Shown: positions 1,295 to 23,479 of the stretch, piece by piece | Layout of the letters: each line of letters starts with the position of its first letter | Position numbering within the stretch: the stretch's first letter is position 1 | Origin: a virus | Direction: 5' to 3' (one strand) | Virus record (IMG/VR): IMGVR_UViG_3300034375_011295 | DNA: 34,865 nt | The notes under the pieces: model-generated | What the model saw: only the letters and a program-made list of their open reading frames with translations | Databases searched by the model: none | Told to the model about the DNA's origin: nothing | Translations under genes and position numbers: made by a program

Positions 1295-1876
1295 TTAACC
1301 TATAAATCTTCTACCAGTTGTCAAATCTTGCATATATTTTTTGCCCTTATTTTGTTCTCTTAATCTTTCCATTTTTTCTTTTTTACTTCCAAAAAGTATT
1401 TGATCTTTTTTCCACATAAAGTCATCAAATTTACCAAAATTTCGTCCTTTGCTATCGACTGCTTCTAAATAATAACCATTGCTATTTAACCAATTATAAA
1501 GTTTATCTTTACGATTAAGTCTTACAATAGTACTTCTTTCCTCTGGAGTTCTATCTGGAAGTTCATTTAATAATTTTTCAAAATTATTTTTATGCCAAAA
1601 TTGATTCACTATTTTTTGTAATGGATTTTTTACTCTTATGCTAACTTCTTCTTTTTCTAACTTTTTAATCCATTTTTTTGGTATTGGAGTAATATAATTT
1701 TCTTTAGCGTGTATTTTTAATTTTATCTTTCTTAACTTATCGCCATTTCCACGTACTCTTATTACTTTACTACTCAATCCAGTAGTTTTTTTCACTTTTG
1801 CTTGAGCTTTTTTACTTGTTGCCAGATAGACTGCTCCTCCAATTGCACCAAGTCCTAATAATGTTTTTGCATCCAT
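1295..1876 (-). CDS. Leader-bearing protein 1 (193 aa): shared N-terminal TM leader plus a basic domain of unknown function
   Basis: Residues 1-35 (MDAKTLLGLGAIGGAVYLATSKKAQAKVKKTTGLS) match the N-terminus of 11600-12124 in 32 of 35 positions and resemble that of 2478-3389. The remainder is unrelated to either. Confidence 0.8.
   Translation of the reverse strand: MDAKTLLGLGAIGGAVYLATSKKAQAKVKKTTGLSSKVIRVRGNGDKLRKIKLKIHAKENYITPIPKKWIKKLEKEEVSIRVKNPLQKIVNQFWHKNNFEKLLNELPDRTPEERSTIVRLNRKDKLYNWLNSNGYYLEAVDSKGRNFGKFDDFMWKKDQILFGSKKEKMERLREQNKGKKYMQDLTTGRRFIG
1772..1876 (-). repeat. Leader cassette copy 1 (codons 1-35)
   Basis: By my manual alignment, 92/105 nt match 12020-12124. Nine of the 13 differences are synonymous third-position changes. 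Confidence 0.85.
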
Positions 1877-1885
1877 AATTTTACC

Positions 1886-2476
1886 TTAAAATTTACCTTT
1901 TAAAAATTGATTCCAAACTAAATAACCACCAACCAAAGCAGTTGCAACCTTTACACCATTGCCAACACTTGCCAGATTGAAAGAGCCGATTGTTTTTTCT
2001 CCTCCCAGAGTTTCCACGTGGATAAAAGCATCAATTTGATCCAGACTTCTCCAGCCAAAATTTACAGAGTCGCCAAAATTTCCCTCAATCGTATTAATTT
2101 TACTGCCCTCGACGTAATTTGTAAAACCGACGTGTCCAGTGCCTTTTGTTCCACCTCTTTTTCCCCAATCAATAAAAAAAACTGCCCCTTGAGTAGCAAT
2201 TTTATTGACTGCAATATTAGATTTTTTTGCATTTGCTAAAAATAAGTGAGTTGATTTTGTTGCAGGTAAAGGATTTTGAACTGCGAAATCTTTACAAGTT
2301 TCATCAACAATCATTGACACAAATTCAGCACACCAAGGATCAGGAGTTGGCTCTCCACCAAAATATGACTTAATTTTATCAACACATTTGGATCTATTCG
2401 GAGTATTTTTATCCTCTTTACATCCATTCCATTGACTTGCATTATAAATTAATCTCTCTCCGAAAGTCGATGACAT
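1886..2476 (-). CDS. CHAP / NlpC-P60-like peptidoglycan hydrolase with a C-terminal membrane anchor (196 aa)
   Basis: Catalytic-type Cys in PWCAEFVS, His in GTGHVGF, then IEGNFGDSV, as in CHAP and TIGR02594-like cell-wall hydrolases. C-terminal helix VKVATALVGGYLVWNQFL is followed by KGKF. Confidence 0.65.
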   Translation of the reverse strand: MSSTFGERLIYNASQWNGCKEDKNTPNRSKCVDKIKSYFGGEPTPDPWCAEFVSMIVDETCKDFAVQNPLPATKSTHLFLANAKKSNIAVNKIATQGAVFFIDWGKRGGTKGTGHVGFTNYVEGSKINTIEGNFGDSVNFGWRSLDQIDAFIHVETLGGEKTIGSFNLASVGNGVKVATALVGGYLVWNQFLKGKF

Positions 2477-2477
2477 T

Positions 2478-3389
2478 TTAACCTCTTTTTTTCTTTTTCA
2501 ATTCGTTAGCAATCCATCTTTTTCCAATTGGATTTTGAACAGGTTTTTGGATAAACCTATCAATTGCTTTTTGTATTCTTGGATCAGCAGGACTATCAGA
2601 GCTACGATCCACAAGATAAAAATTAGCACCAAATAATTTTTTATATTTAGTAATATTTTTTTGTGCAGAATACCATTTTTCCTTAACTAATGAATCTGGC
2701 AAACTTCTGGATCTATTTCTATTCCTTTTTAAAGAAACTTCTAATGAAGTATTAACAAAAATCATTGCACAATCGTAACCTAATTTTTCAGCTAACATTT
2801 TTTTCTTTAACATTTTATCGTAATCATCTCCAGTACCATCCACAATCAGCCCTAATCTACCAGCTTCATAAGAACTTTGTTGCTTATTAGTTATCTTTTT
2901 AGCTCTACCACGTATTGAGTCCTCTCCAGCTCCAATTTTAGCCCACAAAATAGGATCTTCTTTTTCAATTTTTGCCAATTCTTTTGCATTGATATTGGCT
3001 TCAACTAATCCTCTTTCAAAAGCTAAATCAGAATTGACTATTTTCAATCCACTATGAACAAATGAATTTGATCTAACTCCTAATAATTCTTTTGCAGTAT
3101 AACTTTTTCCACTACCAGTTCCACCAGCCATAAAAACACATTTAAAAATACCTTTGTCATAAACTCCACTTAATCCATTACTCAAGCCACCAGTTTTGCA
3201 ATTATTTAATTTTTTTCCAGCACTCGAAGTCTGTTCAATCCTCAATTTTGATCCAGCAATACTGCATTGTTTTTTTCTTGAGATTTTTGTACTTTTTCTT
3301 GTTGTTTTTTTTGTTGTTGATTTTTTACTTGTAGCCAGATAGATTGCTCCACCGATAGCACCAATTCCTAATAATGTTTTTGCATCCAT
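2478..3389 (-). CDS. Leader-bearing protein 2 (303 aa): shared TM leader, basic linker and a P-loop kinase-like domain (zeta-toxin / polynucleotide-kinase-like)
   Basis: N-terminus MDAKTLLGIGAIGGAIYLATSKK. Walker A FMAGGTGSGKSY at aa 86-97. Walker B-like LIVDGTGDD. Arg-rich lid KRNRNRSRSLPD. Confidence 0.6.
   Translation of the reverse strand: MDAKTLLGIGAIGGAIYLATSKKSTTKKTTRKSTKISRKKQCSIAGSKLRIEQTSSAGKKLNNCKTGGLSNGLSGVYDKGIFKCVFMAGGTGSGKSYTAKELLGVRSNSFVHSGLKIVNSDLAFERGLVEANINAKELAKIEKEDPILWAKIGAGEDSIRGRAKKITNKQQSSYEAGRLGLIVDGTGDDYDKMLKKKMLAEKLGYDCAMIFVNTSLEVSLKRNRNRSRSLPDSLVKEKWYSAQKNITKYKKLFGANFYLVDRSSDSPADPRIQKAIDRFIQKPVQNPIGKRWIANELKKKKRG
3318..3389 (-). repeat. Leader cassette copy 2 (codons 1-24)
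   Basis: The nucleotide and peptide sequences match copies 1 and 3 through the TM helix and SKK, then diverge into a Lys/Thr-rich linker. Confidence 0.8.
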
Positions 3390-3393
3390 TTTC

Positions 3394-6036
3394 TTAATAC
3401 TCCAGTAATTTTCTTAATTTTTGAGAAAAAGTTAATTTCTTACTTGTCGCCACTTGTTTAGCACTTTTCAGATGATTAACAACTTTATTGCTCAATCCAC
3501 TTGTTTTTTTATAAGTTCTTTTTGGCTTATTTGCAAGTGTAAGTTGTACATTTTTGCTTTTATTTGAGAAGTAACCACTCATTTTCAGTAGTTCTCTCAT
3601 TTTTGCATTTGCTTTACTTTTATTTGTAAATTTATAGATTTTAGCTTGAGGATCAGAGTGTTTTCTGTTATAAGCCAACAATCTATTCATAGCAGTTTTT
3701 AAAAATGAAGTTGATCCATTGTTGAATTTTGATCCAGCTACATAATAATATTTACAATCTTTTCCAGTAAATCCGTGTATTTCATTCCCTTTCTTAATCA
3801 CATCACTATCAACAACACGAGTGCTTAATTTTATTCTATCAGATAAACCTCTATTTGCAACCAAAGTGCTTAAAATACTTTCTGGAGTAACTTCTTGATC
3901 ATAGCCAAACATCGAATCCCCTTGAGTGCTATTTCTGGCAGATACATAATAACTTTCTAAAATATCTCTAAATTTATTTACACCACTTTTTAATGACAAC
4001 CAAAGCATAGCCACCAAATTATCAGGCATTTCAGCATTTCCGAACATACTTTCTTGATTAAGGAACTCTTTAATTGATACCCCTTGCGTTCTTCTAATAT
4101 TTTCAAACTTGATAACATCTCTCAAATATGGTAACAAATCAAATTCTTTTGACAAAGTTTGGATTTTAGTCAGCACTGGAATAGCTTTTAAAATTCTATT
4201 TGTATAATCTTTAGCACCCTCGATCAATTCTTCGGATGGAAGAATTTTTGCAAGTAATAAATTTTCTAAATTATTTTTTCCAGCAGGAGTAAGATTTCCG
4301 TCATTTGTCAGCCAAATTGGACTATTTGAACTTGTAATAATTTCATTTTTTCGCAAGACATCAATCACAACTTTTTGATTTTTGTCTTTTGAAACAACTT
4401 GATTGAAAGTTTCATCATCCTCGCCCTCAAATATTTGAGCAATTTCCTCAAATCCTTTTTGGCTTAATGATTTTGCTAAACTTAAACTATTTGTATTTTG
4501 ATCTTTGGCTCTGGATAAAGTTTCATTTAAAATTCTGGAATACCAACTGCATCTATCCATTTCAGCATTAATCATTCTCACTAAAACTGGATATTTCATT
4601 TTTTTAAATTCGGTATTATCTGAAAATCCAAACATCTGGAGTCGTGGCTTTAAATAGTCAATATATTTGTCATAATTGTTCAAGAGCTTAACTCTTTTTA
4701 ACATCATTATACGACCATTACCACCTAAAACAACATTATCTTTTGAAACAACGGACGGACCAGTCATTGCTTCTGGACTATCATTTATAAAATGATATGG
4801 CTTGAAATTAGATGAATAACTTAATACCTTATCTTTTTCAGCCGATTTTTTGTAATCTCTTTCTTGACATTGTTTTGGATATTTAGGATTCCAGTCAAAA
4901 GTCCTTTCGTCGTGTGATTGGATCACATCATCAAGTTCCATAATTACATATTTACTTGGAATTTCTTGTGATGGAGTTTCCAGAATACCACTATTTCCAA
5001 CAATTACTTTCCCTTTCGGAGCAGATTTTTTTACTACTTTTTTTGGCTCTTGGTATTCAGCACTTTGCACCATTTCAATAAAATTATCAACTGGCAATCC
5101 ACCATCTTTGACAATATTTAATATTTTCAATGCACCAGATTTTAAAGTTTTAAATAAACTTAAATTTCTATTCTTTTTTGAATAGGCATAAGTAATTCCC
5201 TCTCTAAATGGTCCATTTGGATTATTCAAACCTCCAAATGCTAAATTACAAGACAGAACATTCTTATTATCTTGGCACAATCTATTTGCCATCGTCACAG
5301 AATATTCTAAAATTTTAAATTCTTTTGGTAGTTTGTCCGATCCATAACCTTTGGATGCTTTTTCATATTCAGAAAATGTAATTATCCCACTAACATCAAT
5401 TTTTCTTTCTTTTTCTTCACTTGCTTTTTTCTCCACTTTCTTTGGCTCTGGTGATGGCTTACGAATTTTAAGAATATATGTATTATAAAAATCTTCGTAA
5501 TTAAAATTTGAACGTACCCCAAAAGGATATTCATACTCCAATTCTTTAGCCACTTTAATAGCATCTTTCAAGTTTTTAAATTTAATGTTATGGCTTGGAA
5601 TAGTTTGATTATATTCTGTAATATTCAAAACATATTGACCATTCCCATAAGTGTCCTCATTCACTCTATATTTTTTACTTTCAAAATAAACATTACTCCC
5701 AGTGCCTAACTTTCTAATAGGTTTTATATTTGTAGATCTTTCTTTTCCCCCACTTGCTTTTTTTTCGACTTTTTTTGGCTCTGGAGCAGTCTTTTCTTTT
5801 TTTAGACTTGCAGGACGTTTTACCCTCGAAACTCTTTTTGTAGGACTTTTCTGTGCGTCGTTTTTTTGAGGAGTGGCAGATTTTTTGTCAAAATCAGCAA
5901 ATAAACGAGAAATATCCACTTCCAAGTCTTTGGCAATGGATAAAATCTCATTTTTTATTTCTTTAGCTTCATTTTCCGAAAGTTTATGAAGTTTTTTGTT
6001 GTAATCATTTACTAATTCTTCTAAAAAATCCACCAT
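3394..6036 (-). CDS. Large multidomain (polyvalent-type) protein with a ParB-superfamily (DdrB-ParB-like) core (880 aa)
   Basis: aa ~362-450 read VIMELDDVIQSHD..NPKYPKQCQERDYKKSAEKDKV...GPSVVSKDNVVLGGNGRIMML. This fits the xSHD / QxRD / GNGR pattern of ParB-fold domains in phage and plasmid polyvalent proteins. Lys-rich linkers PEPKKVEKKAS occur twice and QEPKKVVKKSAP once. The C-terminus carries KKTSGLS. Confidence 0.5.
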   Translation of the reverse strand: MVDFLEELVNDYNKKLHKLSENEAKEIKNEILSIAKDLEVDISRLFADFDKKSATPQKNDAQKSPTKRVSRVKRPASLKKEKTAPEPKKVEKKASGGKERSTNIKPIRKLGTGSNVYFESKKYRVNEDTYGNGQYVLNITEYNQTIPSHNIKFKNLKDAIKVAKELEYEYPFGVRSNFNYEDFYNTYILKIRKPSPEPKKVEKKASEEKERKIDVSGIITFSEYEKASKGYGSDKLPKEFKILEYSVTMANRLCQDNKNVLSCNLAFGGLNNPNGPFREGITYAYSKKNRNLSLFKTLKSGALKILNIVKDGGLPVDNFIEMVQSAEYQEPKKVVKKSAPKGKVIVGNSGILETPSQEIPSKYVIMELDDVIQSHDERTFDWNPKYPKQCQERDYKKSAEKDKVLSYSSNFKPYHFINDSPEAMTGPSVVSKDNVVLGGNGRIMMLKRVKLLNNYDKYIDYLKPRLQMFGFSDNTEFKKMKYPVLVRMINAEMDRCSWYSRILNETLSRAKDQNTNSLSLAKSLSQKGFEEIAQIFEGEDDETFNQVVSKDKNQKVVIDVLRKNEIITSSNSPIWLTNDGNLTPAGKNNLENLLLAKILPSEELIEGAKDYTNRILKAIPVLTKIQTLSKEFDLLPYLRDVIKFENIRRTQGVSIKEFLNQESMFGNAEMPDNLVAMLWLSLKSGVNKFRDILESYYVSARNSTQGDSMFGYDQEVTPESILSTLVANRGLSDRIKLSTRVVDSDVIKKGNEIHGFTGKDCKYYYVAGSKFNNGSTSFLKTAMNRLLAYNRKHSDPQAKIYKFTNKSKANAKMRELLKMSGYFSNKSKNVQLTLANKPKRTYKKTSGLSNKVVNHLKSAKQVATSKKLTFSQKLRKLLEY

Positions 6037-6039
6037 TTT

Positions 6040-6258
6040 TTATTTCCTTTTTAATCTTGCTTTTAATTTTCTTGCTCTCAATTTTGGAGAAGTGTTCCAC
6101 GCTTTTTTCATTGCAGAACTTCTTTGAGCTTTTGCACCTTTTTTTCTCCATCCACATTTTGAAAGTTGTTTGGCAGAATATGGATTACCAGTTTTAACTA
6201 AACTTCTACCAGCGACTTCGCAAACTGCCGACACTCTTTTTTTTCTTTTCTTTGGCAT
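6040..6258 (-). CDS. Highly basic small protein, putative DNA-binding/condensing (72 aa)
   Basis: About one third of residues are Lys/Arg (MPKKRKKR... KLRARKLKARLKRK) and Glu37 is the only acidic residue. AGGAGG RBS (ataggaggcaataATG). Confidence 0.55.
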   Translation of the reverse strand: MPKKRKKRVSAVCEVAGRSLVKTGNPYSAKQLSKCGWRKKGAKAQRSSAMKKAWNTSPKLRARKLKARLKRK

Positions 6259-8132: not shown

Positions 8133-9640
8133 TAATAAACTCCGTAATATGAATTTATATTAGTATTTATTCCGTTCACATTAGCACCCTCGTAAGAAGT
8201 ATAAATAATATGTTCTTGAATATTGCCATTAAAATACCCGCTGGTTAATTCTCCGATTAAACCTATGCTATATCCATACGTAGTCCCTGCAGAAGTCGTA
8301 GCTGAACCACCAACTAGATTAAGAGTTAATGAACTATTGTTTTTATAAATGTAAATATTTAACCCACTATCATATAAAATATTATATATATTTTGGTTAG
8401 TATCTTGCGAAGTCGAACTCGTTTCGTATATCCTATAAGAACTACCATCTCCCCAATATGTGCTGTTTTTATTAGATGTATTAAATCTAAAACCACCCCA
8501 CCCTGTTAAAGCCGCACCACTACTTGCTACAGAACCTGAAACATTATATGTAACTCCTGTAGCTGATGCTTTTAATGTTTGAAAAATAGAATATCTAGCT
8601 GGCTTTGTTATTGCAGTCCCTAACCCTAAACTATCATTAGAGCCGTCGAATTGTAAAGTCGGCTTTCCGTTTTCTAATAAAACACCTGTCGAACTATCAT
8701 AAATTTTAGGTTGATTTGCAGTAGTGGATTGAGTAGCATTTCTATTGTTTCCACTTTGGTCGTACCAAGTCGTTACAAAACCATTTGTTCCACTGCAAAA
8801 ACTTGCTAATGAAGTCGTATCTAATTCATTACTAACAAATCCAATATCTTGCTCTGCATTATCACTTGCACGTCTTACTCTTATTGTTGAACCTGAATAA
8901 TTATATCTTAACTTTCTTAATGAATAAGCAACTGCACTACCTGAATAATTATCTAATAATAGTTTTTTAGGTAAACCTATTCTTCCTTTTTCATTATTTA
9001 ATATTTTTAAAGCTCCCTTTGGAATTGCTATATCGTAAGCAATTATATTATCCATTAATCCTGAATAATAGTTTAAATACGTACTTGGTTGGTATCTTAA
9101 AACCCCAATACTTACATATTTATTACTATTTATATTTCTATGAGTTCCGCTTGCTGTTCCTATTGAAGAGCCGTTTACAAACGCTTCTATATTTGAGGTC
9201 GTTCCATTACCTGAACATATACCTCCGAACGAGTTCCAATTTGTATCAACTGTCCCACCAGTAATACCGATATTAAAATCATTAGAACCAATACCAAAAT
9301 AATATTGCGATGATGCTAAGGACGTTCGAAACCAAGGAGCCGTGTTTGATGCCCCTCCGCTGTCTGAATTAAATGGTCTGTAAAAAGTGGAAGACGATGT
9401 TGGTTTTATCCAATATATAAAAGAAAAGTTAGTTTTAAAAAAATCGTCGGTTGTGTTATTAAAATTAATTCTAGTCGAAGTGCCATTAAAAGAGCCTGCA
9501 CTGTTACTTTGATTAAATTCATTTACACCGTAAGTTAATGAATTGGCAGTAACCGCAATATTATTAATAGAACTATCTGACGAACTATTGTCTAATTTAA
9601 AATATATTTTTTTTCTTTTTATATAACTACGACCTATCAC
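8132..9640 (-). CDS. Receptor-binding / fibre-like protein with a LamG (concanavalin-like lectin) type domain (502 aa)
   Basis: FSFIYWIKPTSSS and YFNGNIQEHIIY resemble LamG-fold strands. The central stretch AVAYSLRKLRYNYSGSTIRVRRASDNAEQDIGF..TTWYDQSGNNRNATQ..ANQPKI is a block I recognise from phage fibre and sugar-binding proteins. Confidence 0.5.
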   Translation of the reverse strand: MIGRSYIKRKKIYFKLDNSSSDSSINNIAVTANSLTYGVNEFNQSNSAGSFNGTSTRINFNNTTDDFFKTNFSFIYWIKPTSSSTFYRPFNSDSGGASNTAPWFRTSLASSQYYFGIGSNDFNIGITGGTVDTNWNSFGGICSGNGTTSNIEAFVNGSSIGTASGTHRNINSNKYVSIGVLRYQPSTYLNYYSGLMDNIIAYDIAIPKGALKILNNEKGRIGLPKKLLLDNYSGSAVAYSLRKLRYNYSGSTIRVRRASDNAEQDIGFVSNELDTTSLASFCSGTNGFVTTWYDQSGNNRNATQSTTANQPKIYDSSTGVLLENGKPTLQFDGSNDSLGLGTAITKPARYSIFQTLKASATGVTYNVSGSVASSGAALTGWGGFRFNTSNKNSTYWGDGSSYRIYETSSTSQDTNQNIYNILYDSGLNIYIYKNNSSLTLNLVGGSATTSAGTTYGYSIGLIGELTSGYFNGNIQEHIIYTSYEGANVNGINTNINSYYGVY

Positions 9641-12410: not shown

Positions 12411-12718
12411 TTTAAAAATCCTTGTTTATTCAAATAATTTTCAATGTAAGTAAGTCCTATTGATCTTAAAGTTTTATTTACCTTGCTAAAGTCTAATTTT
12501 GAAATTAAATTAGCAAGTGGCTGGAACTTTGCATTAATATTAAAATCCATATATACTGGAGTCGTAGTCCTAATTGGAACATAATTAACTGCAATATTTT
12601 TTAAATCTTTCACTTTTGCCAGAACATCATCTTTTGTTCCTGCGAATTGTAATCTTTTTCCAAGATTAATCAATTCTTTCGGTGTGTCTTTTGCTATTTT
12701 AACCATTTGGAACTCCAT
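12407..12718 (-). CDS. Hypothetical protein (103 aa; may start at the internal Met5)
   Basis: ORF overlaps both neighbours by a few nt, consistent with translational coupling. Confidence 0.65.
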   Translation of the reverse strand: MEFQMVKIAKDTPKELINLGKRLQFAGTKDDVLAKVKDLKNIAVNYVPIRTTTPVYMDFNINAKFQPLANLISKLDFSKVNKTLRSIGLTYIENYLNKQGFLK

Positions 12719-13529: not shown

Positions 13530-14171
13530 TTAAACCCAAAATTCAACTATTGCTTGAACTGGATAATTTTGATATGTACTTTCTTCTGAAACGTATTGAG
13601 CAAATGCAGTTGAAATTTCAATATTGCTTACTCTTTCTACTTCTTTTCCTACATTTATGCAAGTATTCATTGGAATACCAAGTGATTTAAAACCTTTATT
13701 GCTTTCAGATCCAGCAGGACCATTGATAAACCCTTGATTGATTAATTCTCCATCAATTGTAATCGCAGGACGGAAAAAATTTGGCTGGAAAACCACTGGC
13801 ATAGCACCATTCAAGTAATTTGATTGTGGATATGACCTTGTTACAGTCGTTCCATCAATTAATTGAGATCCTATAATTACATCAGCAGTTGCAGATAAAC
13901 CAGCAATCGTTGGATCAAAAGCAAAAAAGCTAACTTGATGCACAAATAAGCAGTTTTTAGATTTCAATGGAGTTAGATCTGAAAAAGGAGTTAAACTTCT
14001 TACTTCTGGGCTTGTTGTGGCATCTGCCATAGCTTGTAAGTAAGCAATTAAGCCATTATCAGCATCTGTAATTGTTACTCCAGATTTTGATGTTAAATAA
14101 GTGGCATAAAAAGTATTTGGGTACTTTTCACGCATTCCACTTAAATAAATTGGCGTATTATTATCGAACAT
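13530..14171 (-). CDS. Beta-rich structural protein, capsid candidate (213 aa)
   Basis: Position in the structural core. No helices or TM evident, and the composition is typical of beta-sandwich proteins. The function is inferred from context. Confidence 0.4.
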   Translation of the reverse strand: MFDNNTPIYLSGMREKYPNTFYATYLTSKSGVTITDADNGLIAYLQAMADATTSPEVRSLTPFSDLTPLKSKNCLFVHQVSFFAFDPTIAGLSATADVIIGSQLIDGTTVTRSYPQSNYLNGAMPVVFQPNFFRPAITIDGELINQGFINGPAGSESNKGFKSLGIPMNTCINVGKEVERVSNIEISTAFAQYVSEESTYQNYPVQAIVEFWV

Positions 14172-15804: not shown

Positions 15805-16455
15805 TTATCTTCTTTCTCTAATTTGAAGTGTTTTCAAATCAAAGATAACTCCATAACCTTTTGAAGACGATAGACCAGAATTTGGCCAAGTCATAAAGTT
15901 AGTAGTTCCAACTGCTTCTGTTGTAAATGTACCATTAACATTGAATTGGAATTGGAATGTAGTTCCAGCACCTAAAACAATTGGCTCTGGTAATTTATAA
16001 CCTTGATCAGCGTTTCTTCTTTCCACTTTAGTCCAAGCTGCTGCTTCGTCTGTTGCAGATGCTTCTACCACAGAATAAAAAGGTACTAAATTTGAAAGTG
16101 GCTCATTTAAGATTTCAGATCCTTCAACTTGTAATCTTACATAAGCATTTTCCAAGAAAGAAGCATAAGTTTGTCTTGCAGATGCTTCATCAGTTGAATC
16201 AGTAGTCGAGAATAACACATAAGGTTTAATGTTAATTCCTTGAATACTAAACGCTTGTGAGTTTGACGGAAATCCGGGTGTTTTATAAGCATCATTTTTA
16301 CTTGCAGAAGTAAATAATTGATTGCTTGGCTCAAAAGAAGCTCCACCATCCACAAAAATTGTATCTCTTACCGTCTTCGGTACTACGACATAGTTGTCGT
16401 CCATTTTTGGCGCTCCAACTGCTTGAAGTTGAAGTCTTTGTTGATCTATTGACAT
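15805..16455 (-). CDS. Major structural (capsid) protein candidate (216 aa)
   Basis: Beta-rich protein. The gene is followed by the strongest hairpin in the arm, a common signature of highly expressed capsid genes. Contains NSGLSSS. Function is inferred. Confidence 0.4.
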   Translation of the reverse strand: MSIDQQRLQLQAVGAPKMDDNYVVVPKTVRDTIFVDGGASFEPSNQLFTSASKNDAYKTPGFPSNSQAFSIQGINIKPYVLFSTTDSTDEASARQTYASFLENAYVRLQVEGSEILNEPLSNLVPFYSVVEASATDEAAAWTKVERRNADQGYKLPEPIVLGAGTTFQFQFNVNGTFTTEAVGTTNFMTWPNSGLSSSKGYGVIFDLKTLQIRERR

Positions 16456-16483: not shown

Positions 16484-17068
16484 TTAATTAAATCTTGAAT
16501 AAACATCTGTATCCATCCATTCCATTCCATCAGACATAGTTGGAGTTGTTTTAAATTGACTATTTTGTCTAAATTTTGAAAGATTACTTGCATAATCACT
16601 CATTCCAGCCGAATTATCACTTTGTACAGTTGTTGGGATCATAATACCTTGCTCGTTTGGAACTTGTACCACTTCTTGACCATCAGACATAGTCGGAGTA
16701 GCACTATAAATTCCATCTGCCAAAGAAGATGATCCAGCGATTGCAGGAAGAACTAATGGCTGATTCAATGAACTTGCCAAAGTTTTATTCCAGTAGTGTA
16801 AAATTTGCTCTCCACCAGCAAATGCTAATGTAGTTGTCCCAGCAGTTTTCCAACCTTTCCCATAGCAAACTGCCGAAACTAAAATTGCAGATGAAAGGGC
16901 AGGAATAGGACCAGATAAATCTACATTTTGACCAGCTTTGCTTAATCCATATTGAGTAATTCCAGCCAAGTTTTTACTTACCAGAACTGCCCCAATAGAT
17001 TGAGCAACTGTTTTTAATGTTGGACCTTTGAATATTTCAGATAGTCCGTTTGTCAATGCTTTTAACAT
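16484..17068 (-). CDS. Hydrophobic Gly/Ala/Ser-rich membrane protein with repeated TPTMSDG motifs (194 aa)
   Basis: Hydrophobic segments (SIGAVLVS, PALSSAILVSAVCYG, TTTLAFAGG). TPTMSDG occurs twice and GMSDY once. Two GLS sites. Confidence 0.7.
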   Translation of the reverse strand: MLKALTNGLSEIFKGPTLKTVAQSIGAVLVSKNLAGITQYGLSKAGQNVDLSGPIPALSSAILVSAVCYGKGWKTAGTTTLAFAGGEQILHYWNKTLASSLNQPLVLPAIAGSSSLADGIYSATPTMSDGQEVVQVPNEQGIMIPTTVQSDNSAGMSDYASNLSKFRQNSQFKTTPTMSDGMEWMDTDVYSRFN

Positions 17069-17085: not shown

Positions 17086-17589
17086 TTATGAATATTGAGT
17101 ATAAACTGGAACTCCCATATTGTCATATCCAGTTATTGAGTAAAGTCTTCCGTTATTCTTGTTTTTATAAAGAACAGTTCCATTCGGTGTTCTCGAGTCT
17201 TGGATCATTTCACTTTGAGCAAATGAATCAGATAAACCACCAGATTTGTCTAATTGCATTTTCCCTAAATAACACAATCCACCTACAATTGCAGTTGTCA
17301 AAGGTCCAGTTTTGAAAATCATCCAAGAAGCTCCAGCACCAATTCCACCAATTAATAATGGATCAGCGTCATTGAATTTTCTCTTAACTTTCGTTACAAT
17401 TCCCTCTTTTTCCTTATCTACTTCTGGAACAACCTCTTTGATCTGTTCCTCTACTTTTTCAATTCCCTCGTCAATTTCTTTGTTTTTTTTGTTGATTAAA
17501 TCCCTGCCTTTGTCTAACCAGACATCAAGTATTCCACCATCAGAAAGCGAAATTGATTTTGGAATTGCACTTGTACCACTTACATACAT
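17086..17589 (-). CDS. Membrane protein, hypothetical (167 aa)
   Basis: Central helices LLIGGIGAGASWMIF and LTTAIVGGLCYLG, followed by SGGLSDS. Confidence 0.7.
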   Translation of the reverse strand: MYVSGTSAIPKSISLSDGGILDVWLDKGRDLINKKNKEIDEGIEKVEEQIKEVVPEVDKEKEGIVTKVKRKFNDADPLLIGGIGAGASWMIFKTGPLTTAIVGGLCYLGKMQLDKSGGLSDSFAQSEMIQDSRTPNGTVLYKNKNNGRLYSITGYDNMGVPVYTQYS

Positions 17590-17610: not shown

Positions 17611-19764
17611 TTAATACTCACAACAATTTCTTTCATACTCACATTCACAACAATAATTGCAATGATTTTCATAGCCCACATTATCATTGTTTTTTAAAAA
17701 ATTAATTTCCTCTCTTAATTCTTTTTCTCTTTGTTTTGCATCAGTCAAAGCCGATTTTAATTCATTTTCTCTTTCAGGACTAAAATTTTTAATCAGATCA
17801 TTTTCATATTTTAGATTTTCAGATCTTAATCTTTCAAGTTCCTCTGTCATAGATGAATTTTTATTATTTTGACTTCGCAAATCTTTAATTTCATTCTGCA
17901 AATTTTTATTTTTTTCTTGCAACTGACTTAATTCTCTAATAAAATTATCACAAGGTTCTGGCTCTTTTTGTGGCTCTACTGGAACACAATCAACAATAAA
18001 TCTCCAACCCTCGCCTAAATCAGCAATAAATTTATTTTCTGTTGTTTTTTTAGCTGGATAAGTTTTTCCTTTCCAGAAATAAACCAAGCCACCATTTTCA
18101 GATTTTTGAATACAACAAGGCAAATCATCAGTATTAACTTTCTCAATCGGTGGGGAAGTGTGAACACCCTCTGGACAAAGTATTGGTCTTGTTAGCCCAA
18201 CATTTTTAAAAATTTTACCATTTGCAAATTGGATATAATCTCCATCCACAATATAAGATCCACCAAAATCTTTTGCCATTGCGTTGTAATCAACATAATC
18301 TTCTGGTAAATAAATTGCTTGAGGGCAATTTTTATATTTTGCGTTGCAAAAAGCCAATTCGCCACAATCAAATTTTTTGCCAGTAACATCAATTTTATTT
18401 TTTGTCAAAGAACTTTTATTAACTTTTCTCAAATAATCAGTACCATTCAGCAATATAATTTCATAAACATTCCCATCTGGATCTGTGTAATAATCTTTAC
18501 CATCAACATAACTTTGCTTTAATTTTTGCCAAAGCCCAGACTTCATTGCATCAAATCTCCTTATCAAGTCATTTCCTTGAGAGCTACTGCTCCCAGAATT
18601 AGAAGACCCACCAGTACCAGAGGGATTTGAGGAGTTGCCTCCTGCACTACCTCCTTGAGTGCCACCACCAGTTGAGCTATTGCCACCAGTATTTGAATTG
18701 TTAGAACTTCCACCACCAGTATTTACATTATTTGTGATTTTTTCAATTTTGATTGGATAAATAACTATTTCAGTATTGATTTGGTCAATAGCATAAGTCT
18801 TATTATCCAGAGAATAATCAAACACTTGCATAATTGTAGCATTAGTACTGTTTTTTAACGGAGTAAAAAATCTGTCTTTTAACTCAATCCCATTTTCAGT
18901 TGTAATCTTATATTCTCCATCCCAAAGAGCATTTTTAAAAAAAAGAGTTTTTACATTTTTAATACCATTGTAAGATTGCATCTCTTTGATAAAATCTCCC
19001 AAGTTTGAAGTAGGAGTGCCTACTCGCATATAACTCATAACTTGTGGAGTAAATTTATAAATCAGTCCACCAAGTAAATTAGTCCATCTACCAGAATATG
19101 CCGATACATCATTGATATTTTTAACACCTGTTGGAATATTTAATCCTAATTTTGTACCGACACCAACACCGATTAAAGCAGTTGCAGGATCAACAATTAA
19201 TCCCATTTTCTTTGGCTCTAAAGTTGGAACTAAATTATAAATTGCATTATTTGAATAGCTTTTTATCCAATTTGAAATATTACCATTTGAAAAATCAACT
19301 GAATTTAATGTTGTTGATTTTGTTGTAAATCTTCCCCAAGTATCAAATATTTCAGCTCCATTACTTGCTTTTCTAAATCTAACATTAACATTTTTTAACT
19401 TGATTTTCCTTTCGGCAAAGAAAACACCACCAGTAAGAACATTTGAAAAGGCAAAATAAATTATGTCGTAAATAAAAGTATCTCTTGAACTGCCTTTTAC
19501 TACATTTATTGATGGAACTACTTTTATTGTCATAGTCCATTTGTCAAGAATTTTAGTTGTTTTGCTATCGTATTTATTTAAAAATTGAGTATTGATCCAT
19601 TTAGAGTTGTTTTTTCTGTCAAGAAAATAGCCACCAGTTGAAAATGGATAATTATTAGCATTATAGTAAGTGGATAAGCCCAAAGCATCCCACATACCAT
19701 TAATAAACTGATCAGATTGACCAGTAATTAATAAATTCCAATTTTCGTTTGGAGTGTTACCCAT
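17611..19764 (-). CDS. Large structural protein (717 aa): N-terminal globular half, G/S/N low-complexity linker, Cys-rich C-terminal half, coiled coil and a CC-rich tail
   Basis: Linker aa 345-398 (nt ~18571-18732). Coiled coil ~aa 608-693. The last 17 aa, HCNYCCECEYERNCCEY (nt 17614-17664), contain 6 Cys. Confidence 0.75.
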   Translation of the reverse strand: MGNTPNENWNLLITGQSDQFINGMWDALGLSTYYNANNYPFSTGGYFLDRKNNSKWINTQFLNKYDSKTTKILDKWTMTIKVVPSINVVKGSSRDTFIYDIIYFAFSNVLTGGVFFAERKIKLKNVNVRFRKASNGAEIFDTWGRFTTKSTTLNSVDFSNGNISNWIKSYSNNAIYNLVPTLEPKKMGLIVDPATALIGVGVGTKLGLNIPTGVKNINDVSAYSGRWTNLLGGLIYKFTPQVMSYMRVGTPTSNLGDFIKEMQSYNGIKNVKTLFFKNALWDGEYKITTENGIELKDRFFTPLKNSTNATIMQVFDYSLDNKTYAIDQINTEIVIYPIKIEKITNNVNTGGGSSNNSNTGGNSSTGGGTQGGSAGGNSSNPSGTGGSSNSGSSSSQGNDLIRRFDAMKSGLWQKLKQSYVDGKDYYTDPDGNVYEIILLNGTDYLRKVNKSSLTKNKIDVTGKKFDCGELAFCNAKYKNCPQAIYLPEDYVDYNAMAKDFGGSYIVDGDYIQFANGKIFKNVGLTRPILCPEGVHTSPPIEKVNTDDLPCCIQKSENGGLVYFWKGKTYPAKKTTENKFIADLGEGWRFIVDCVPVEPQKEPEPCDNFIRELSQLQEKNKNLQNEIKDLRSQNNKNSSMTEELERLRSENLKYENDLIKNFSPERENELKSALTDAKQREKELREEINFLKNNDNVGYENHCNYCCECEYERNCCEY

Positions 19765-20057
19765 TATTTATTCCATTCTTTTTGATAAGCAAAATATCCT
19801 AAAGTCGCTATGCCAAGCCCAATTAAATAAGGTGCATACTCTTTCAAATACGAACCTAATTCATATTTAGCTCCAGTTCCACAAACTCGAATAGTCGATT
19901 TTCCAACTGCCGAAAACATTGCATCTTCCAACGCATTAGTTTTACCCATTACCAGTTGAGAAGCCACTTTTTTTAAGTCAAGATTGCGTACTTCTTTGAA
20001 AACTTCCTCTTTTACAATTTGTTGAGTTAGTTTCGGCAAGTCTGAATATGATTCCAT
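19764..20057 (-). CDS. Tail-anchored small membrane protein (97 aa)
   Basis: C-terminal helix YAPYLIGLGIATLGYFAY followed by QKEWNK. Confidence 0.7.
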   Translation of the reverse strand: MESYSDLPKLTQQIVKEEVFKEVRNLDLKKVASQLVMGKTNALEDAMFSAVGKSTIRVCGTGAKYELGSYLKEYAPYLIGLGIATLGYFAYQKEWNK

Positions 20058-20060
20058 CTT

Positions 20061-20249
20061 TTACCCTAATTTAGCCAACTCTTTAGCTTGTAATCTACTC
20101 AAGATTGCTTCGCAAGTTTCTTTTGATCTCTTGCGAAATATTCTTTTCTTACCTTTAAAAATTGACCAGAACTCATTATAAGTTGGATCAGCTTTCAAAG
20201 TATAAACAGAATTTATTTCTGCTTTTTTTGTAGTTTTTGCTTTTGCCAT
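20061..20249 (-). CDS. Small basic protein, hypothetical (62 aa)
   Basis: Lys/Arg-rich ORF in the operon. Confidence 0.6.
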   Translation of the reverse strand: MAKAKTTKKAEINSVYTLKADPTYNEFWSIFKGKKRIFRKRSKETCEAILSRLQAKELAKLG

Positions 20250-20263
20250 TTTTCTACCTAATT

Positions 20264-21802
20264 TTAAAAAAGTTTATTTTTCTTTGCATACCATATACCT
20301 CCACCAACTGCTACTGCAATCCCCAGAGGCATCATTTTTCTTAAATTTGTGTCATAATCCCAATTATCTTGATAACCAATTACATCAGCACCAACTGACT
20401 TCTTAATTTCAATTGCAAATTTTTCTCTTTTGCCAATTGGAATTGTGTCTGGAAGAACAAAAGGAATTTTGTTACTGGCATATTTAGATGCTTGTTTTAT
20501 CAAAGCACTTAAAGTCATTTCATCAAAATTATCTTCTGGACCAACATAGCCAAATGATGAAGCTATTAATCCCACTAAATTATTTTGTGTCAATCTATTG
20601 TCAGATATTTCACGTTTTATTATTTCTGGAATTAGTTTATCTACTCCAATCACACCTTGCAAAATTGTTCCAGCACTTCCAGACTGAAATAAATTATTTA
20701 TTGCAGGAACTTGATAAACCGAAATGCTTTCTGAAAGTTCTGAAAGTAAATTTTCTCCTCCAGATCGCCCAGTCATTTTTCTTTTTAAGATTTCATTTGT
20801 ATAAGAACTAACCACACCAGAAAAAGTCTTATTTGCATTTGCTAAAGATCCATTGATTTTTCTTAAATCAACTACTTGATCAAATTTTCCAGAAGCAATA
20901 TTATTTAAGAACTTTATAGTTTCTGCTTTATCTACTCCAGTAATTGATGAAAATTGAGTTACTAAATTTCCAGCAAAATTTTGTTGGATCGACTCATAAC
21001 CAGTTTTTGCTTGATCAATATATTTTCCAAAAATCCAACCATCTTCCAACTTTCCAGTAATATCGTTTTTAATTTTACCCCACTTTGCAGTAGCTCCTTT
21101 CGTCCATTCAGGCAACAATATTTCAGAAGTCATTGCCAAAGATTTAAAAATATTATTGTTTTGAGCAGTTTTGTCGCCTTTTGACCAAATTTTTATTAAC
21201 GTTCCAGCTTGTTCGATAAACTTTGGATCAATATTCAAAGGTCCTGCAAAGGAACTCGCAATTGCTAAAGCATAGCCAAGCACATCTGTTAATGAATTTG
21301 CTTCCGAATAACTCCAATAAATAATTATTGGATTGTCGTGCTTTTCTCTATTATTTTCAATTTTTTCAAGAACTTCAAAGAAATTTTTATTATAATCTGG
21401 CTTTCTAAATTTCCAATTTCCAAAATATCCACCACTCACAACACCTTTATTAATCAATTTTGCCCTGTCTGTCCTTGTATTGTTGTTATTTCCCCAAATA
21501 TTTCTAATTGTTTGACCAACTTGAATAATAGGGCAGTTTGACCATAATTCTTTTGAGCTATTAAAACCTAACAATTCTCCTTTAAGCAAAGTTTTTGATT
21601 GTTTAGTATTTTCATCAGCAACTACAATTAAATTTCCAACTTTATCTTTAAACATTCCAAAACCAGTTGGGCTTTTTAAATTATCCGTTTTTTCATTATA
21701 AAAAAGAGCCGATCCATTTATCAAAGCCGAAGAATTTGCAGTCGTTATATCATAACAAACGTGCAATTCTTTTAAAGCCGACCAATGTTGAATGTTTTTC
21801 AT
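20264..21802 (-). CDS. Large tail-anchored protein, unknown function (512 aa)
   Basis: No P-loop or other recognisable motif. C-terminal helix MMPLGIAVAVGGGIWYA followed by KKNKLF. Confidence 0.75.
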   Translation of the reverse strand: MKNIQHWSALKELHVCYDITTANSSALINGSALFYNEKTDNLKSPTGFGMFKDKVGNLIVVADENTKQSKTLLKGELLGFNSSKELWSNCPIIQVGQTIRNIWGNNNNTRTDRAKLINKGVVSGGYFGNWKFRKPDYNKNFFEVLEKIENNREKHDNPIIIYWSYSEANSLTDVLGYALAIASSFAGPLNIDPKFIEQAGTLIKIWSKGDKTAQNNNIFKSLAMTSEILLPEWTKGATAKWGKIKNDITGKLEDGWIFGKYIDQAKTGYESIQQNFAGNLVTQFSSITGVDKAETIKFLNNIASGKFDQVVDLRKINGSLANANKTFSGVVSSYTNEILKRKMTGRSGGENLLSELSESISVYQVPAINNLFQSGSAGTILQGVIGVDKLIPEIIKREISDNRLTQNNLVGLIASSFGYVGPEDNFDEMTLSALIKQASKYASNKIPFVLPDTIPIGKREKFAIEIKKSVGADVIGYQDNWDYDTNLRKMMPLGIAVAVGGGIWYAKKNKLF

Positions 21803-21805
21803 TTT

Positions 21806-22639
21806 TTAATACCTTTCAGGGTACTTGTAAATTTTTTCTCCAGCAGTAATTGTTGAATATAATTGCTTATGACCTCGTCCATTTACTGCATCTGGCAAAG
21901 TGATTTTATCTTTTTCAAGAACTTCATCAACAACAACATTTTCATTTGGATTTTTTACACCTAATTGGTGCAATAATCTTTGAGTTACATCAATATTATT
22001 ACTTCCAGACTGACTATTTGAGTGTTGATTTCCAATATTTATATTAATTTCAGGCATACCTTTCCTTAATCCAGAGCATCTATTACAAGACCCTTTACAA
22101 GCACAAGGTTTATCTGACAAAGTTTTTAATTCTAATTCTGGCATTGGCGACCTATATAATTTTGTTCTATTTGCTTTTACTGTGTGATTAAAACCAGCAC
22201 TTTTCATTGTCGGATCTAAAACAATCCATCTACTTCCATCTTTTGCTTCCAAAACAATATGAGTAAATCTCAAATCTTTTGGATCTTTCCAAGAAATCAC
22301 TTTATATCTTGTCGTAATTCCATTAATTCTTAATAATGAAGAAATAAGTAAAACCATACTTTCACAATCTTCACAAGTTTTCTGCCCTGATATTAAGAGC
22401 CAAGGCGACGTAATATGCTCCATTCCTTTAGGATCATCACAAAAACTTACAGACTTCCAAACATAATCAAAGCACTTTTTAATTGTATCAGATCTTGAAC
22501 TGCCTCTCAACTCGTTAGCTTTTTTTTTTACTATTGGATTGTTTGTAGCCACTTGATCAATAGAATATATTTCTCTAATTATTTGATCAATCAATCCATC
22601 GTGATTTTTAGCAGTTATATTTCTTGATTTTGACTTCAT
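21806..22639 (-). CDS. Transglutaminase-like (papain-fold) cysteine protease superfamily protein (277 aa)
   Basis: Core KTCEDCESMVLLISSLLRINGITTRYKVISW ... FTHIVLEAKDGSRWIVLDPT matches the Cys / His / Asp order and spacing of transglutaminase-like domains. A Cys cluster (CACKGSCNRCSG) lies in the C-terminal third of the protein (aa ~179-190). Confidence 0.6.
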   Translation of the reverse strand: MKSKSRNITAKNHDGLIDQIIREIYSIDQVATNNPIVKKKANELRGSSRSDTIKKCFDYVWKSVSFCDDPKGMEHITSPWLLISGQKTCEDCESMVLLISSLLRINGITTRYKVISWKDPKDLRFTHIVLEAKDGSRWIVLDPTMKSAGFNHTVKANRTKLYRSPMPELELKTLSDKPCACKGSCNRCSGLRKGMPEININIGNQHSNSQSGSNNIDVTQRLLHQLGVKNPNENVVVDEVLEKDKITLPDAVNGRGHKQLYSTITAGEKIYKYPERY

Positions 22640-22845
22640 TATTTAGCAAGTTGATTATTCGGAGCAGTTACAGTCGTTGCAAATGTATAAAGCCCTCCAG
22701 TTGTTTGCATAATTCCTAAAACTGCCAACGTCTTCCACCAACCATTTTTTTTCCAATTCTTAATTCCATAATGAGAAGCAACACCACCAATTCCAGTAGC
22801 AACTGTTGAATAAGCAATTTTTTGATTTTTTGTTAATTCAGTCAT
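22639..22845 (-). CDS. Two-TM small membrane protein (68 aa)
   Basis: Helices AYSTVATGIGGVASHYGI and WWKTLAVLGIMQTTGGLYTFATTV. Confidence 0.65.
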   Translation of the reverse strand: MTELTKNQKIAYSTVATGIGGVASHYGIKNWKKNGWWKTLAVLGIMQTTGGLYTFATTVTAPNNQLAK

Positions 22846-22849
22846 TTTC

Positions 22850-23479
22850 TTAACCTTTTAAAATTTTCGCAGAAGTATTTATTTGAGTTAAGGCATAAAC
22901 TCCTAATCCTACAAATGCAGTAATTACTATTGCTTTTCCAGTCCAAGTTGGCAATCCAATTGCCGAAAATAAATTTGAATCTGGATCTTGACTTTTTGAA
23001 CTATTTTTGTATTCATCTGGAATAGAGTTGTTTTTTAAATACAATGAATTATTTGATGGTCTTAATATTCCGTCAAATTTTATAGTTCCATCTTTTGTAT
23101 AATAATACAATTGATCCAAAACTCTTTTTGTCAATTTTGGATTAAATCCACTTCCTTGACTTACTTTATCTACAACATTACTTTGTTGCTCTTTAGTCAA
23201 TTTGCTTAAATCATAAATAGGAATTTCTTTTTTTACTACTAAATTTCCATAAGTATTTACAATCGATGCTACTTCTCGCCAATCGATTGATCCAGATACC
23301 CAATTCCAGATCCCATCATTCCAATTTAAAGCAGTAACCAGATGAGCAATTGTTCTTTCGTAGTAAGAATTTGCAATTACTCCCCAAAAAAAAAGAGTTT
23401 GTTGCCAGAAATCTTGCTCCAAAGGAGGAACTACTTTGTCCGACAATCCCATTGAGATATTATTTGCATCTCTATACAT
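22850..23479 (-). CDS. Tail-anchored protein, unknown function (209 aa)
   Basis: SMGLSDK at aa 9-15. C-terminal helix AIVITAFVGLGVYALTQI. Confidence 0.7.
   Translation of the reverse strand: MYRDANNISMGLSDKVVPPLEQDFWQQTLFFWGVIANSYYERTIAHLVTALNWNDGIWNWVSGSIDWREVASIVNTYGNLVVKKEIPIYDLSKLTKEQQSNVVDKVSQGSGFNPKLTKRVLDQLYYYTKDGTIKFDGILRPSNNSLYLKNNSIPDEYKNSSKSQDPDSNLFSAIGLPTWTGKAIVITAFVGLGVYALTQINTSAKILKG

Follow-up and report, generated by a model that had tools for sequence, protein, structure and literature searches.

A recurrent G-L-S peptide motif in the virion-arm proteins of a metagenomic virus: a possible maturation-cleavage code

The IMG/VR record IMGVR_UViG_3300034375_011295 represents a virus that is known solely from metagenomes, and the whole stretch of 34,865 nucleotides that was analysed is referred to here as the window (W). 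This 34.9 kb genome window has a G+C content of about 30% and consists of two divergent arms. The plus arm codes for a Lin1244-type initiator and a DnaB helicase. The minus arm (773-24159, minus strand), to which all features described below belong unless another location or strand is given, can reasonably be called the virion arm. According to Pfam, its products include two CHAP peptidases, an SLT transglycosylase, a transglutaminase-core protein, and a P-loop kinase of the Zeta/AAA_33 type. The arm also codes for a ddrB-ParB protein, fibre-like proteins, numerous small proteins bearing hydrophobic segments, and a probable double-jelly-roll major capsid protein. A preliminary description of this DNA, made from its letters, had drawn attention to the tripeptide Gly-Leu-Ser (GLS), which recurs in the proteins of this arm, and had proposed it as a cleavage or recognition code. 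The motif of which GLS forms the core is very likely a real, selected recognition signal in the proteins of the virion module, and it may serve as a proteolytic processing site.

All 16 GLS sites listed earlier are present in the genes and contexts given for them, and a 17th, missed at that time, lies at residue 29 of 17611-19764 (DALGLSTYY). The earlier estimate of only a few occurrences by chance was borne out by exact statistics. Over the 7615 amino acids (aa) of the minus arm, 17 GLS are observed against 3.62 expected from per-protein composition and 4.85 under a first-order dipeptide model (Poisson p = 3e-7; 0.0024 after Bonferroni correction over 8000 tripeptides). None of 20000 residue shuffles reached 17. 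Moreover, GLS ranks first of the 8000 tripeptides, and the runner-up (p = 2.6e-4) is three orders of magnitude weaker. Near-variants occur at chance levels, namely GIS (0 vs 3.4 expected), GVS (3 vs 2.7), GLT (4 vs 3.2), ALS (1 vs 2.8), and SLS as well. A generic over-representation of GLS is ruled out by a control of 55 unrelated loci, where the observed-to-expected ratio is 0.94 over 168,463 aa. Paralogy or tandem duplication accounts for four of the 17 sites, the non-independent sites being three leader copies, one tandem copy, and a KKTSGLS tail. The window alone is not decisive, and it is replication in relatives that settles the reality of the motif.

The signal extends beyond the tripeptide. 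The (G/T)MSD sites reported before are all there (TPTMSDG twice, GMSDY, and GGMSDA), and further variants occur as TLSD in 21806-22639 and SLSD in 17086-17589. GLS followed by D, N, S, or G is found 13 times against 1.09 expected, and (G/T)(L/M)SD 11 times against 0.41. The residue at +1 is Asp at 6/17 sites (background 5%) and that at +3 is hydrophobic at 11/17 (background 31%); small or polar residues are over-represented at -1, and the flanks are more hydrophilic than average (p = 0.03). GLS was a genuine signal as first described, but the true motif is longer and less strict, approximately (K-K-x-x)-(G/T)-(L/M)-S-(D/N/S/G)-x-hydrophobic. The excess is concentrated in the cargo, small membrane, scaffold-like, and minor proteins, whose 4312 aa contain 16 of the 17 sites (1.95 expected), whereas GLS is at chance level (1 vs 1.68) in the capsid protein, two large proteins, and the fibre/lysis block taken together. 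The claim that the motif is confined to the virion arm fared less well: the other 3341 aa hold no GLS at all, but only 0.53 are expected there, where G and S are scarce, so that the probability of finding none is about 0.59. This absence is therefore uninformative and was dropped as evidence, likewise in the relatives.

Selection acts on the peptide, because the sites use three Gly codons (GGA/GGT/GGC), four Leu codons (TTG/TTA/CTT/CTA), and six Ser codons (AGT/AGC/TCT/TCA/TCG/TCC), covering both families of Leu and of Ser codons. Furthermore, orthologous sites keep GLS through synonymous changes and through switches between TCN and AGY codons for Ser. A DNA-level motif as the main cause is ruled out by this variety across sites and by the codon changes between orthologues. 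Some repetition at the DNA level does exist. As reported before, KKT(T/S)GLS appears three times with nearly identical DNA (AAAAAAACTACTGGATTGAGT twice and AAAAAAACAAGTGGATTGAGC once). Of the 9-mer GGATTGAGT the window contains six copies, against about 0.2 by rough arithmetic from base composition. Five copies lie on the minus strand (1772-1780, 10793-10801, 11792-11800, 12020-12028, and 18882-18890) and one on the plus strand (8726-8734); four of the five on the minus strand encode an in-frame GLS and the remaining one is not in frame. Likewise, GGA-TTG-AGT is used at 4/17 GLS sites against 0.48 expected from codon usage (p = 0.001). This minor excess may stem from short-patch recombination at cargo junctions.

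Contigs of relatives (denoted by L numbers) were reached through the capsid protein, the leader described below, a 167-aa protein, and the transglutaminase-core enzyme. Close relatives share 61-74% capsid identity with the window and the distant L003 and L004 share 32-33%. In close relatives, GLS is again in excess, with 12 observed vs 2.5 expected in L001, 9 vs 1.2 in L005, 8 vs 1.2 in L009, and 12 vs 1.85 in L072. As these counts are largely inherited, the comparison of orthologous sites carries more weight. The distant relatives provide the strongest independent evidence for the motif. The pattern (G/T)(L/M)SD, fixed beforehand from the window, occurs 4 times against 0.22 expected in L003 (p = 9e-5) and 6 times against 0.20 in L004 (p = 8e-8), mostly at non-orthologous sites. 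The conserved core there is L-S-D, and LSD is the top tripeptide of L004 (10 vs 1.2 expected). The enzyme (35-39% identity) also led to three contigs from relatives that are more remote again, with 6 pooled GLS against 1.05 expected (p = 7.5e-4). Of three look-ups of contigs for distant enzyme homologues, two gave contigs of just 1.7-3.2 kb and the third reached no further than the start of the virion arm. Small proteins beside the enzyme on the enzyme-found contigs contain KKTSGLSDKK and, N-terminally, YGLSDEI, QLSD, and LGLSNAP. As for conservation in homologous genomes, which had been suggested as a test, the enrichment recurs in close and distant relatives, and about 3-4 of the listed sites are not kept.

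The most regular context of the motif is a shared leader. Proteins 1295-1876, 11600-12124, and 2478-3389 start with a common module: after a short N-terminal stretch comes a hydrophobic helix rich in Gly (TLLGLGAIGGAVYLA), and then a linker rich in Lys that ends in KK(T/A)(T/V)-G-L-S at residues 33-35. The 35-residue leader of 1295-1876 (MDAKTLLGLGAIGGAVYLATSKKAQAKVKKTTGLS; 1772-1876), a paralogous copy, has its GLS at 1772-1780, and the 35-residue leader of 11600-12124 (12020-12124) has it at 12020-12028. In the P-loop kinase protein 2478-3389, the linker is longer, and the extended leader (3168-3389) closes with a tandem GLSNGLS at residues 68-74 (3180-3188 and 3168-3176), just before the P-loop domain, whose Pfam match (AAA_33/Zeta_toxin) begins at residue 84-85. 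The orthologues of 11600-12124 in L001, L005, L009, and L072 likewise have GLS at residues 33-35 of their leaders. The helix has diverged in L001 and L009 (HIVLGGLLAGATYLA), with length, basic linker, and the position of GLS retained. In an alignment of six leaders, G33-L34-S35 is invariant and conservation past S35 is zero. The cargo behind the leader differs from protein to protein and includes the P-loop kinase, DUF7222, a domain of the Staphylococcus phage TreK family (from residue 49), and unknown domains. A profile search with the leader returned only three more proteins, all composed of leader, GLSD, and a new cargo; proteins of 74-76 aa came from this search. Additionally, a second GLS often follows 10-15 residues downstream of the leader GLS (KRSSGLSSRK, KSSRGLSSRT). 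Two conventional readings of the leader were rejected. A Sec signal peptide does not agree with the unconserved A-x-A (AQA in some leaders, KKALNK or PKARKK in others), and a lipoprotein signal does not agree with the lack of a lipobox Cys; in addition, Lys-Lys stands directly after the helix.

Beyond the leaders, sites tend to lie near termini or next to domains. N-terminal sites, 6-17 residues in, are found in 22850-23479, 23479-23670, and 17086-17589. The first of these, ISMGLSDKV (23441-23449, residue 11), corresponds to IGLSDKI in L001, with the Ser codon changed from TCG to AGT, and the first protein of L004, which starts MYTT where the window protein starts MYRD, carries YLSD at residues 15-18 (matched by eye). 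The 63-aa protein 23479-23670 has GMSD at residues 6-9 (23644-23655), with GMSN at the same place in L072. It starts MSCCGGMSD (MACCNGMSN in L072); the two adjacent Cys shortly ahead of the motif are conserved, and further on come a hydrophobic segment on the C-terminal side and a basic tail. Protein 17086-17589 carries the variant SLSD at residues 14-17 (17539-17550), where homologues have ISN or LSD and where the L004 and L003 counterparts show TPTLEDG and SPTLEDG near their N-termini (again by eye). Its second site, DKSGGLSDSF (17230-17238, residue 118), is invariant in 6/6 homologues although its codons vary among them (GGT/GGA/GGC for Gly, TTA/CTT/TTG for Leu). In the AlphaFold (AF2) model of this protein, the predicted local distance difference test score (pLDDT) stays under 50 for residues 1-120, and a beta domain modelled with confidence follows from residue 121, directly after GLS 118-120.

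C-terminal sites, about 20-35 residues from the end, occur in 15805-16455 and in 3394-6036 and its homologues. The former has NSGLSSSK at residue 194/216 (15868-15876), which is GLS in W and L009 and GLT in L001, L005, and L004. The latter, the 880-aa ddrB-ParB protein, has ANRGLSDRI at residue 730 (3841-3849) and KKTSGLSNKV at residue 847, 31 residues before the C-terminus (3490-3498). The counterpart of this second site is KKASGLSNKV at residue 750/783 in L010/L011, and the L003 homologue has both KKTKGLSDK and KKENGLSDK in its C-terminal tail. This protein also contains two near-identical PEPKKVEKKAS segments, and the basic C-terminal tail that follows GLSN is similar to the basic linker in the leaders. 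Two GLSD sites flank the coiled coil of the scaffold-like protein 12699-13505. ESGLSDNI (13023-13031, residue 159) is kept in W, L001, L005, and L009 with codon changes, and NKGLSDEV (12888-12896, residue 204) is kept in L005, L009, and the distant L004 (PPGLSDRI), the same column reading ALAD in L001 and SLGD in L003. Protein 16484-17068 keeps QYGLSKAG (16940-16948, residue 41) in L005 and L072 but not in L001 or L009. Its C-terminal region (16529-16693) bears TMSD (residue 126), GMSD (155), and TMSD (177), and two columns there read GMSD/GLSN/ALSE/TLSE and TMSD/TLSN/GLSD/ALSD across genomes, amid indels. SQSGLSGGE (11792-11800) is at residue 109 of 11600-12124. IAGLSATA (13893-13901, residue 91 of 13530-14171) persists in four genomes despite changes in its flanks (TIA to TRD, A to D), Ser being TCT in W and AGT in L001. 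About 3-4 sites look accidental, since they are not kept in relatives and their number matches the chance expectation of about 3.6. They include NNGLSGSQ of the CHAP protein 10685-11278 (10793-10801; GKSG or GKTG in relatives), TNGLSEIF at residue 8 of 16484-17068 (17039-17047; GFSE or GFKE), and DALGLSTYY of 17611-19764 (19672-19680; GAK in L001, kept in L072). The earlier remark that sites often sit at domain junctions agrees with the leader ends, the near-terminal positions, the pair around the coiled coil, and the predicted domain boundary. Judged from sequence, such positions fit those expected of maturation-cleavage sites.

Three proteins had been put forward as proteases that might act on the motif, and one of them, 21806-22639, is supported by a catalytic triad, an invariant L-x-D, and its presence in all relatives in which the region is covered; the support extends to only this one of the three. 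It matches Pfam Transglut_core with 27.7 bits against a cut-off of 23, and its counterparts are found in W, L001, L004, L071-L073, and L076-L079. A HMMER scan of 1.84 billion representative proteins returned 571 relatives; about 25 of them are full-length, with identities of 29-63%. In an alignment of 23 homologues, D91-C92, H127, and D142 (C92, H127, and D142 forming a papain-like triad) are invariant, and so are L174 and D176. These last two belong to a T-L-x-D element (TLSD, TLED, TLND, SLED, and the like; TLSD at residues 173-176, 22112-22123, in the window) directly after the catalytic domain, and apart from the triad they are the only invariant residues nearby. Core-only homologues of 157-173 aa end about ten residues before T-L-x-D, which places the element at a domain boundary. 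Many homologues have extra copies, LSDCGC or LNDCGG, in the Cys-rich insert that follows. Beyond T-L-x-D, the family shows this insert in variable length, an N-x-N-I-I-N-I-G-N motif, and a C-terminal aromatic Y-x-x-(F/Y)-Y. The protein has no Pfam match to BTLCP or vasohibin, the generic Transglut_core model being the only one, and no informative sequence match in the PDB. Although the homologues in metagenomes number some 571, a scan of IMG/VR with the enzyme alignment yielded only two weak partial matches; the searches of GenBank phages yielded none.

The protein 14161-15276 (371 aa, all-beta, with an internal duplication) contains no GLS. Its AlphaFold model has a pLDDT of 65, and the best PDB folds found by Foldseek are PRD1 P3, Sulfolobus turreted icosahedral virus (STIV), PR772, vaccinia D13, Paramecium bursaria chlorella virus 1 (PBCV-1), and FLiP. 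Against BFVD, the model matches the capsid protein of tectivirus Wip1 (E 5e-7), the STIV coat protein, and GC1. The template modelling (TM) scores are only about 0.2. The protein is thus a probable double-jelly-roll capsid protein on the evidence of its model, which is good but short of conclusive because the TM-scores are low. Full-length relatives form only six clusters among 5.8 billion proteins. A metagenome scan gave a longer L005-type contig, the known relatives again, and otherwise a decoration-domain module. That module lies within residues ~264-346 of the capsid protein as an insert of about 80 residues. It shows 40-57% identity to 'neck/structural' proteins of tailed Rhizobium and Brucella phages and to hundreds of 600-aa metagenomic proteins, as if a domain of decoration type had passed between viruses with and without tails. 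Scans of IMG/VR (with the capsid alignment) and of GTDB genomes returned this module only, in tailed phages and prophages, and no full-length capsid relative was found in the IMG/VR scans. Apart from a small decoration-type module, nothing similar was present in 50,697 GenBank phage records; blastn of 17611-21802 against GenBank phages and a single-protein pattern scan of IMG/VR gave no useful match.

Hallmarks of tailed phages were likewise not seen. Among the minus-arm proteins scanned against Pfam and PHROG, there is no match to a terminase, portal, HK97-type capsid, or tail protein, nor to an assemblin/HK97-fold serine protease, and the Pfam scans gave no Peptidase_C5 (Ulp1/adenain) match. 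Of ten proteins scanned against PHROG, eight have no family and the other two have only coiled-coil or kinase-type matches. No protein-primed polymerase was detected in the window. Relatives hold a tyrosine integrase and CI/HTH (helix-turn-helix) regulators between the arms (L071 2364-3458, L072 2144-3238, and L076 6852-7958), which marks the family as temperate. At the equivalent place (23670-24638), the window has no integrase open reading frame and shows a gene-poor, very AT-rich gap of about 1 kb. The virus appears to represent an undescribed temperate lineage, probably without a tail and with a membrane. Outside the virion arm, 33510-34190 (minus strand) codes for a 226-aa P-loop ATPase that matches AAA_25/KaiC-like models only, has no sequence match in the PDB, and is conserved in L010. 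A packaging ATPase of the FtsK/HerA type characterises double-jelly-roll, membrane-containing bacterial viruses, and this protein might package the genome. A 72-aa protein (6040-6258) with about 40% Lys + Arg lies beside the ddrB-ParB protein; it might condense DNA as a core protein, recalling those of adenovirus. The 717-aa protein 17611-19764 combines a low-complexity stretch rich in G, S, and N with a coiled coil towards its C-terminus and an end rich in Cys (HCNYCCECEYERNCCEY), and it has no database matches.

On this evidence, the motif (G/T)-(L/M)-S-(D/N/S/G)-x-hydrophobic, often after K-K-x-x, would mark internal virion proteins, and the transglutaminase-core cysteine protease 21806-22639 would cut it during maturation of the particle. 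Papain-fold enzymes usually find their main specificity at position P2. The cut would fall after Ser, as the invariant Leu/Met would then fill P2, and this bond agrees with leader conservation ending at S35 and with the domain start at residue 121. Processing would strip the common 35-residue hydrophobic, basic leader, which may bring unrelated cargo (the P-loop kinase, DUF7222, the TreK-like domain, and small unknown proteins) into the assembling particle. Moreover, N-terminal peptides of 8-12 residues and C-terminal tails of about 20-35 residues would be clipped from small membrane and minor proteins, the coiled-coil scaffold-like 12699-13505 would be cut on either side of its coil, and the catalytic domain of the enzyme might be separated from its own Cys-rich C-terminal part. 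Candidate substrates are the motif peptides KVKKTTGLSDSTKD, QLDKSGGLSDSFAQ, and ELKTLSDKPCA. We infer the cutting of the motif, the bond, and the enzyme. Processing at the motif is given a probability of roughly 0.5, and the assignment of the transglutaminase-core protein as the cleaving enzyme is somewhat less probable. The full picture, in which a temperate double-jelly-roll family with an internal membrane matures by a packaged transglutaminase-fold protease that reads (G/T)-L-S-D, strips a cargo leader, and dismantles a scaffold, is offered tentatively, as a possibility with the odds somewhat against it.

Several points weigh against this proposal. Of the cleavage or recognition code first proposed, a selected peptide-level signal at processing-like positions stands, but no sequence evidence demonstrates cutting. 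When the copied sites are collapsed, the remaining 13 have p = 1.1e-4, or 0.84 after multiplication by 8000, so that the window alone fails correction. About 5/11 alignable sites are fully conserved, only moderately above expectation for proteins that are 60-75% identical, and close relatives have gained new sites in numbers close to those due to chance. The residue-91 GLS of 13530-14171 is mid-protein, in what may be a folded capsid-associated protein. With respect to the enzyme, the two CHAP proteins likewise have a papain fold and a host protease is an alternative, the invariant L-x-D after the core could be a structural element and not a substrate-like site, and Transglut_core proteins can be cross-linking enzymes or cell-wall hydrolases. 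The transglutaminase-like fold does include true site-specific proteases, e.g. vasohibins and LapG (PMC4866520).

Among the other explanations, the one that survives best is that the motif is never cut and works as a docking element, which binds the shell, a scaffold, or a membrane-assembly factor and so recruits proteins in the manner of encapsulin cargo-loading peptides. Such a role would explain the limitation to internal virion proteins, the multiple copies per protein, the positions in hydrophilic linkers or near termini, and the conservation across clades, and the hydrophobic +3 residue could be part of the binding epitope. However, it leaves unexplained why leader conservation stops exactly at Ser, why sites flank the coil of the scaffold-like protein, and why an invariant copy follows the catalytic domain of the only universally conserved enzyme of the module; the hydrophobic helix of the leader could, besides, already do the targeting. 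Docking is therefore considered unlikely, although it deserves the most attention of the alternatives. Far less probable is a covalent modification of the motif Ser (phosphorylation, glycosylation, or similar) by a virion or host enzyme. The Ser is central and nearly invariant in the window clade, and it alternates with Glu at two sites (TLSD/TLED in the enzyme tail and, by eye, SLSD/TLED in the 17086-17589 counterparts), a pattern known for phosphosites. The arm also codes for a P-loop kinase, but this protein (2478-3389) was ruled out as the writer, being variable cargo which L010/L011 lack at the corresponding position, and the Pfam families that it matches (Zeta_toxin, AAA_33) do not comprise protein kinases. 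Thr is no general substitute either, as the chance-level count of GLT indicates, and no other conserved candidate writer was found. The O-glycosylation motif of Bacteroidota, D-(S/T)-(A/I/L/V/M/T), does not fit the GLS sites.

A mere structural preference, with G-L-S-D-x-hydrophobic acting as a helix N-cap with a hydrophobic staple and no common reader, is about as improbable. Ser or Asp at the N-terminus of a helix, after Gly and a hydrophobic residue, is a common helix start, and many sites continue with x-V/I/F. Nevertheless, the equivalent caps GIS, GVS, GLT, and ALS are not enriched, which rejects this preference as a sufficient cause; GLS is not in excess in the unrelated control proteins, and several sites lie in regions without confident structure. 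Chance combined with paralogy, perhaps aided by the repeat GGATTGAGT, might let duplicated leaders inflate the extreme of 8000 tripeptides, as the four copied sites, the collapsed statistics, and the repeated codons would allow, but it is already largely refuted by the enrichment of the pre-fixed motif at mostly non-orthologous positions in both distant relatives and in the three further contigs, and by the 13/17 sites that use other codon combinations from both Leu and both Ser families.

If the motif is indeed a processing site, its closest counterparts are found among virion maturation systems. Short cleavage codes switch tailed phages, adenoviruses, poxviruses, and African swine fever virus from assembly to infectivity. 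The parallels with T4 gp21 and adenovirus that were first suggested hold as analogies only, since homologues of these proteases were not detected and there is no HK97-type prohead. The prohead codes of tailed phages (L/I-x-E for T4 gp21; S/A/G-x-E for phiKZ gp175 and SPN3US gp245) are, as here, three-residue consensus sequences in internal head proteins. Similarly to the leader described here, tailed phages use short N-terminal propeptides that end at the motif and recur on cargo and ejection proteins, whether unrelated or paralogous. Their propeptides carry extra motif copies, the scaffold is cut up, and the protease has motif copies C-terminal to its catalytic domain (PMC5694885). In SPN3US, for instance, the prohead protease gp245, whose cleavage site is A-X-E, trims itself C-terminally at copies of this motif, and its substrates include paralogues with N-terminal propeptides that are identical and contain the motif (PMC5694885). 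The invariant motif copy of the present enzyme resembles these autoprocessing prohead proteases. The capsid-targeting sequences of T4 are propeptides of 10-20 residues (PMC5694885). Unlike the soluble 10-residue sequence of T4, the leader here is a hydrophobic Gly-rich helix with a basic linker; furthermore, the motif is G-L-S and not x-x-E, the candidate enzyme has a papain fold, and cleavage is a proposal.

Adenain reads (M/I/L)-x-G-G|x and (M/I/L)-x-G-x|G, and this packaged cysteine protease trims many internal proteins. The likeness would lie in a double-jelly-roll capsid and a cysteine protease that trims internal proteins and a scaffold at a short consensus, the adenovirus example of the latter being the L1 52/55k protein (PMC13552765). 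In contrast, adenoviruses infect eukaryotic hosts, their enzyme is clan CE/Ulp1-like and not of the transglutaminase-core type, and the motif differs. Outside virus assembly, LapG cuts at a di-alanine motif. LapG/BTLCP proteins and vasohibins have a papain-like Cys-His-Asp core classed with transglutaminases and act site-specifically on a short motif, as the candidate would (PMC4866520), whereas the candidate belongs to a virus and bears a C-terminal Cys-rich and NIINIGN extension. Encapsulin cargo is directed into the shell by a short conserved terminal peptide found on unrelated enzymes. These peptides are, however, C-terminal and uncleaved, bind an HK97-fold shell, and have no homology to the leader.

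PRD1-type phages (Tectiviridae and other double-jelly-roll viruses of bacteria) resemble the present virus in the probable double-jelly-roll capsid, the many small hydrophobic virion proteins, the virion-associated lytic transglycosylase and peptidases, and the lack of tailed-phage hallmark genes. The differences are a genome of 35 kb (about twice the size), a DnaB helicase with a Lin1244-type initiator, an integrase in relatives, and the lack of sequence similarity to GenBank phages (the small decoration-type module aside). A 2018 review models the maturation protease of this capsid lineage as derived from a eukaryotic transposable element, and lists the PRD1-like bacterial ancestor without one (PMC6260650). 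In a 2019 review of membrane-containing phages, the words protease, cleavage, and proteolysis are absent (PMC6356626), and no report of maturation proteolysis in bacterial double-jelly-roll or membrane-containing phages was found in the literature. If true, the proposal would provide the first maturation protease, cleavage code, and leader-directed cargo loading in a prokaryotic member of this capsid lineage, and proteolytic maturation there would not be confined to the eukaryotic polinton/adenovirus/giant-virus branch. The model predicts the mature ends of about a dozen proteins and defines a portable virion-loading tag; additionally, the enzyme together with motif enrichment offers a sequence signature for finding an overlooked virus family. 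By analogy, the system looks like a known kind of mechanism, similar to those of T4, phiKZ, and SPN3US and of adenovirus, in a new virus lineage that is a member of neither.

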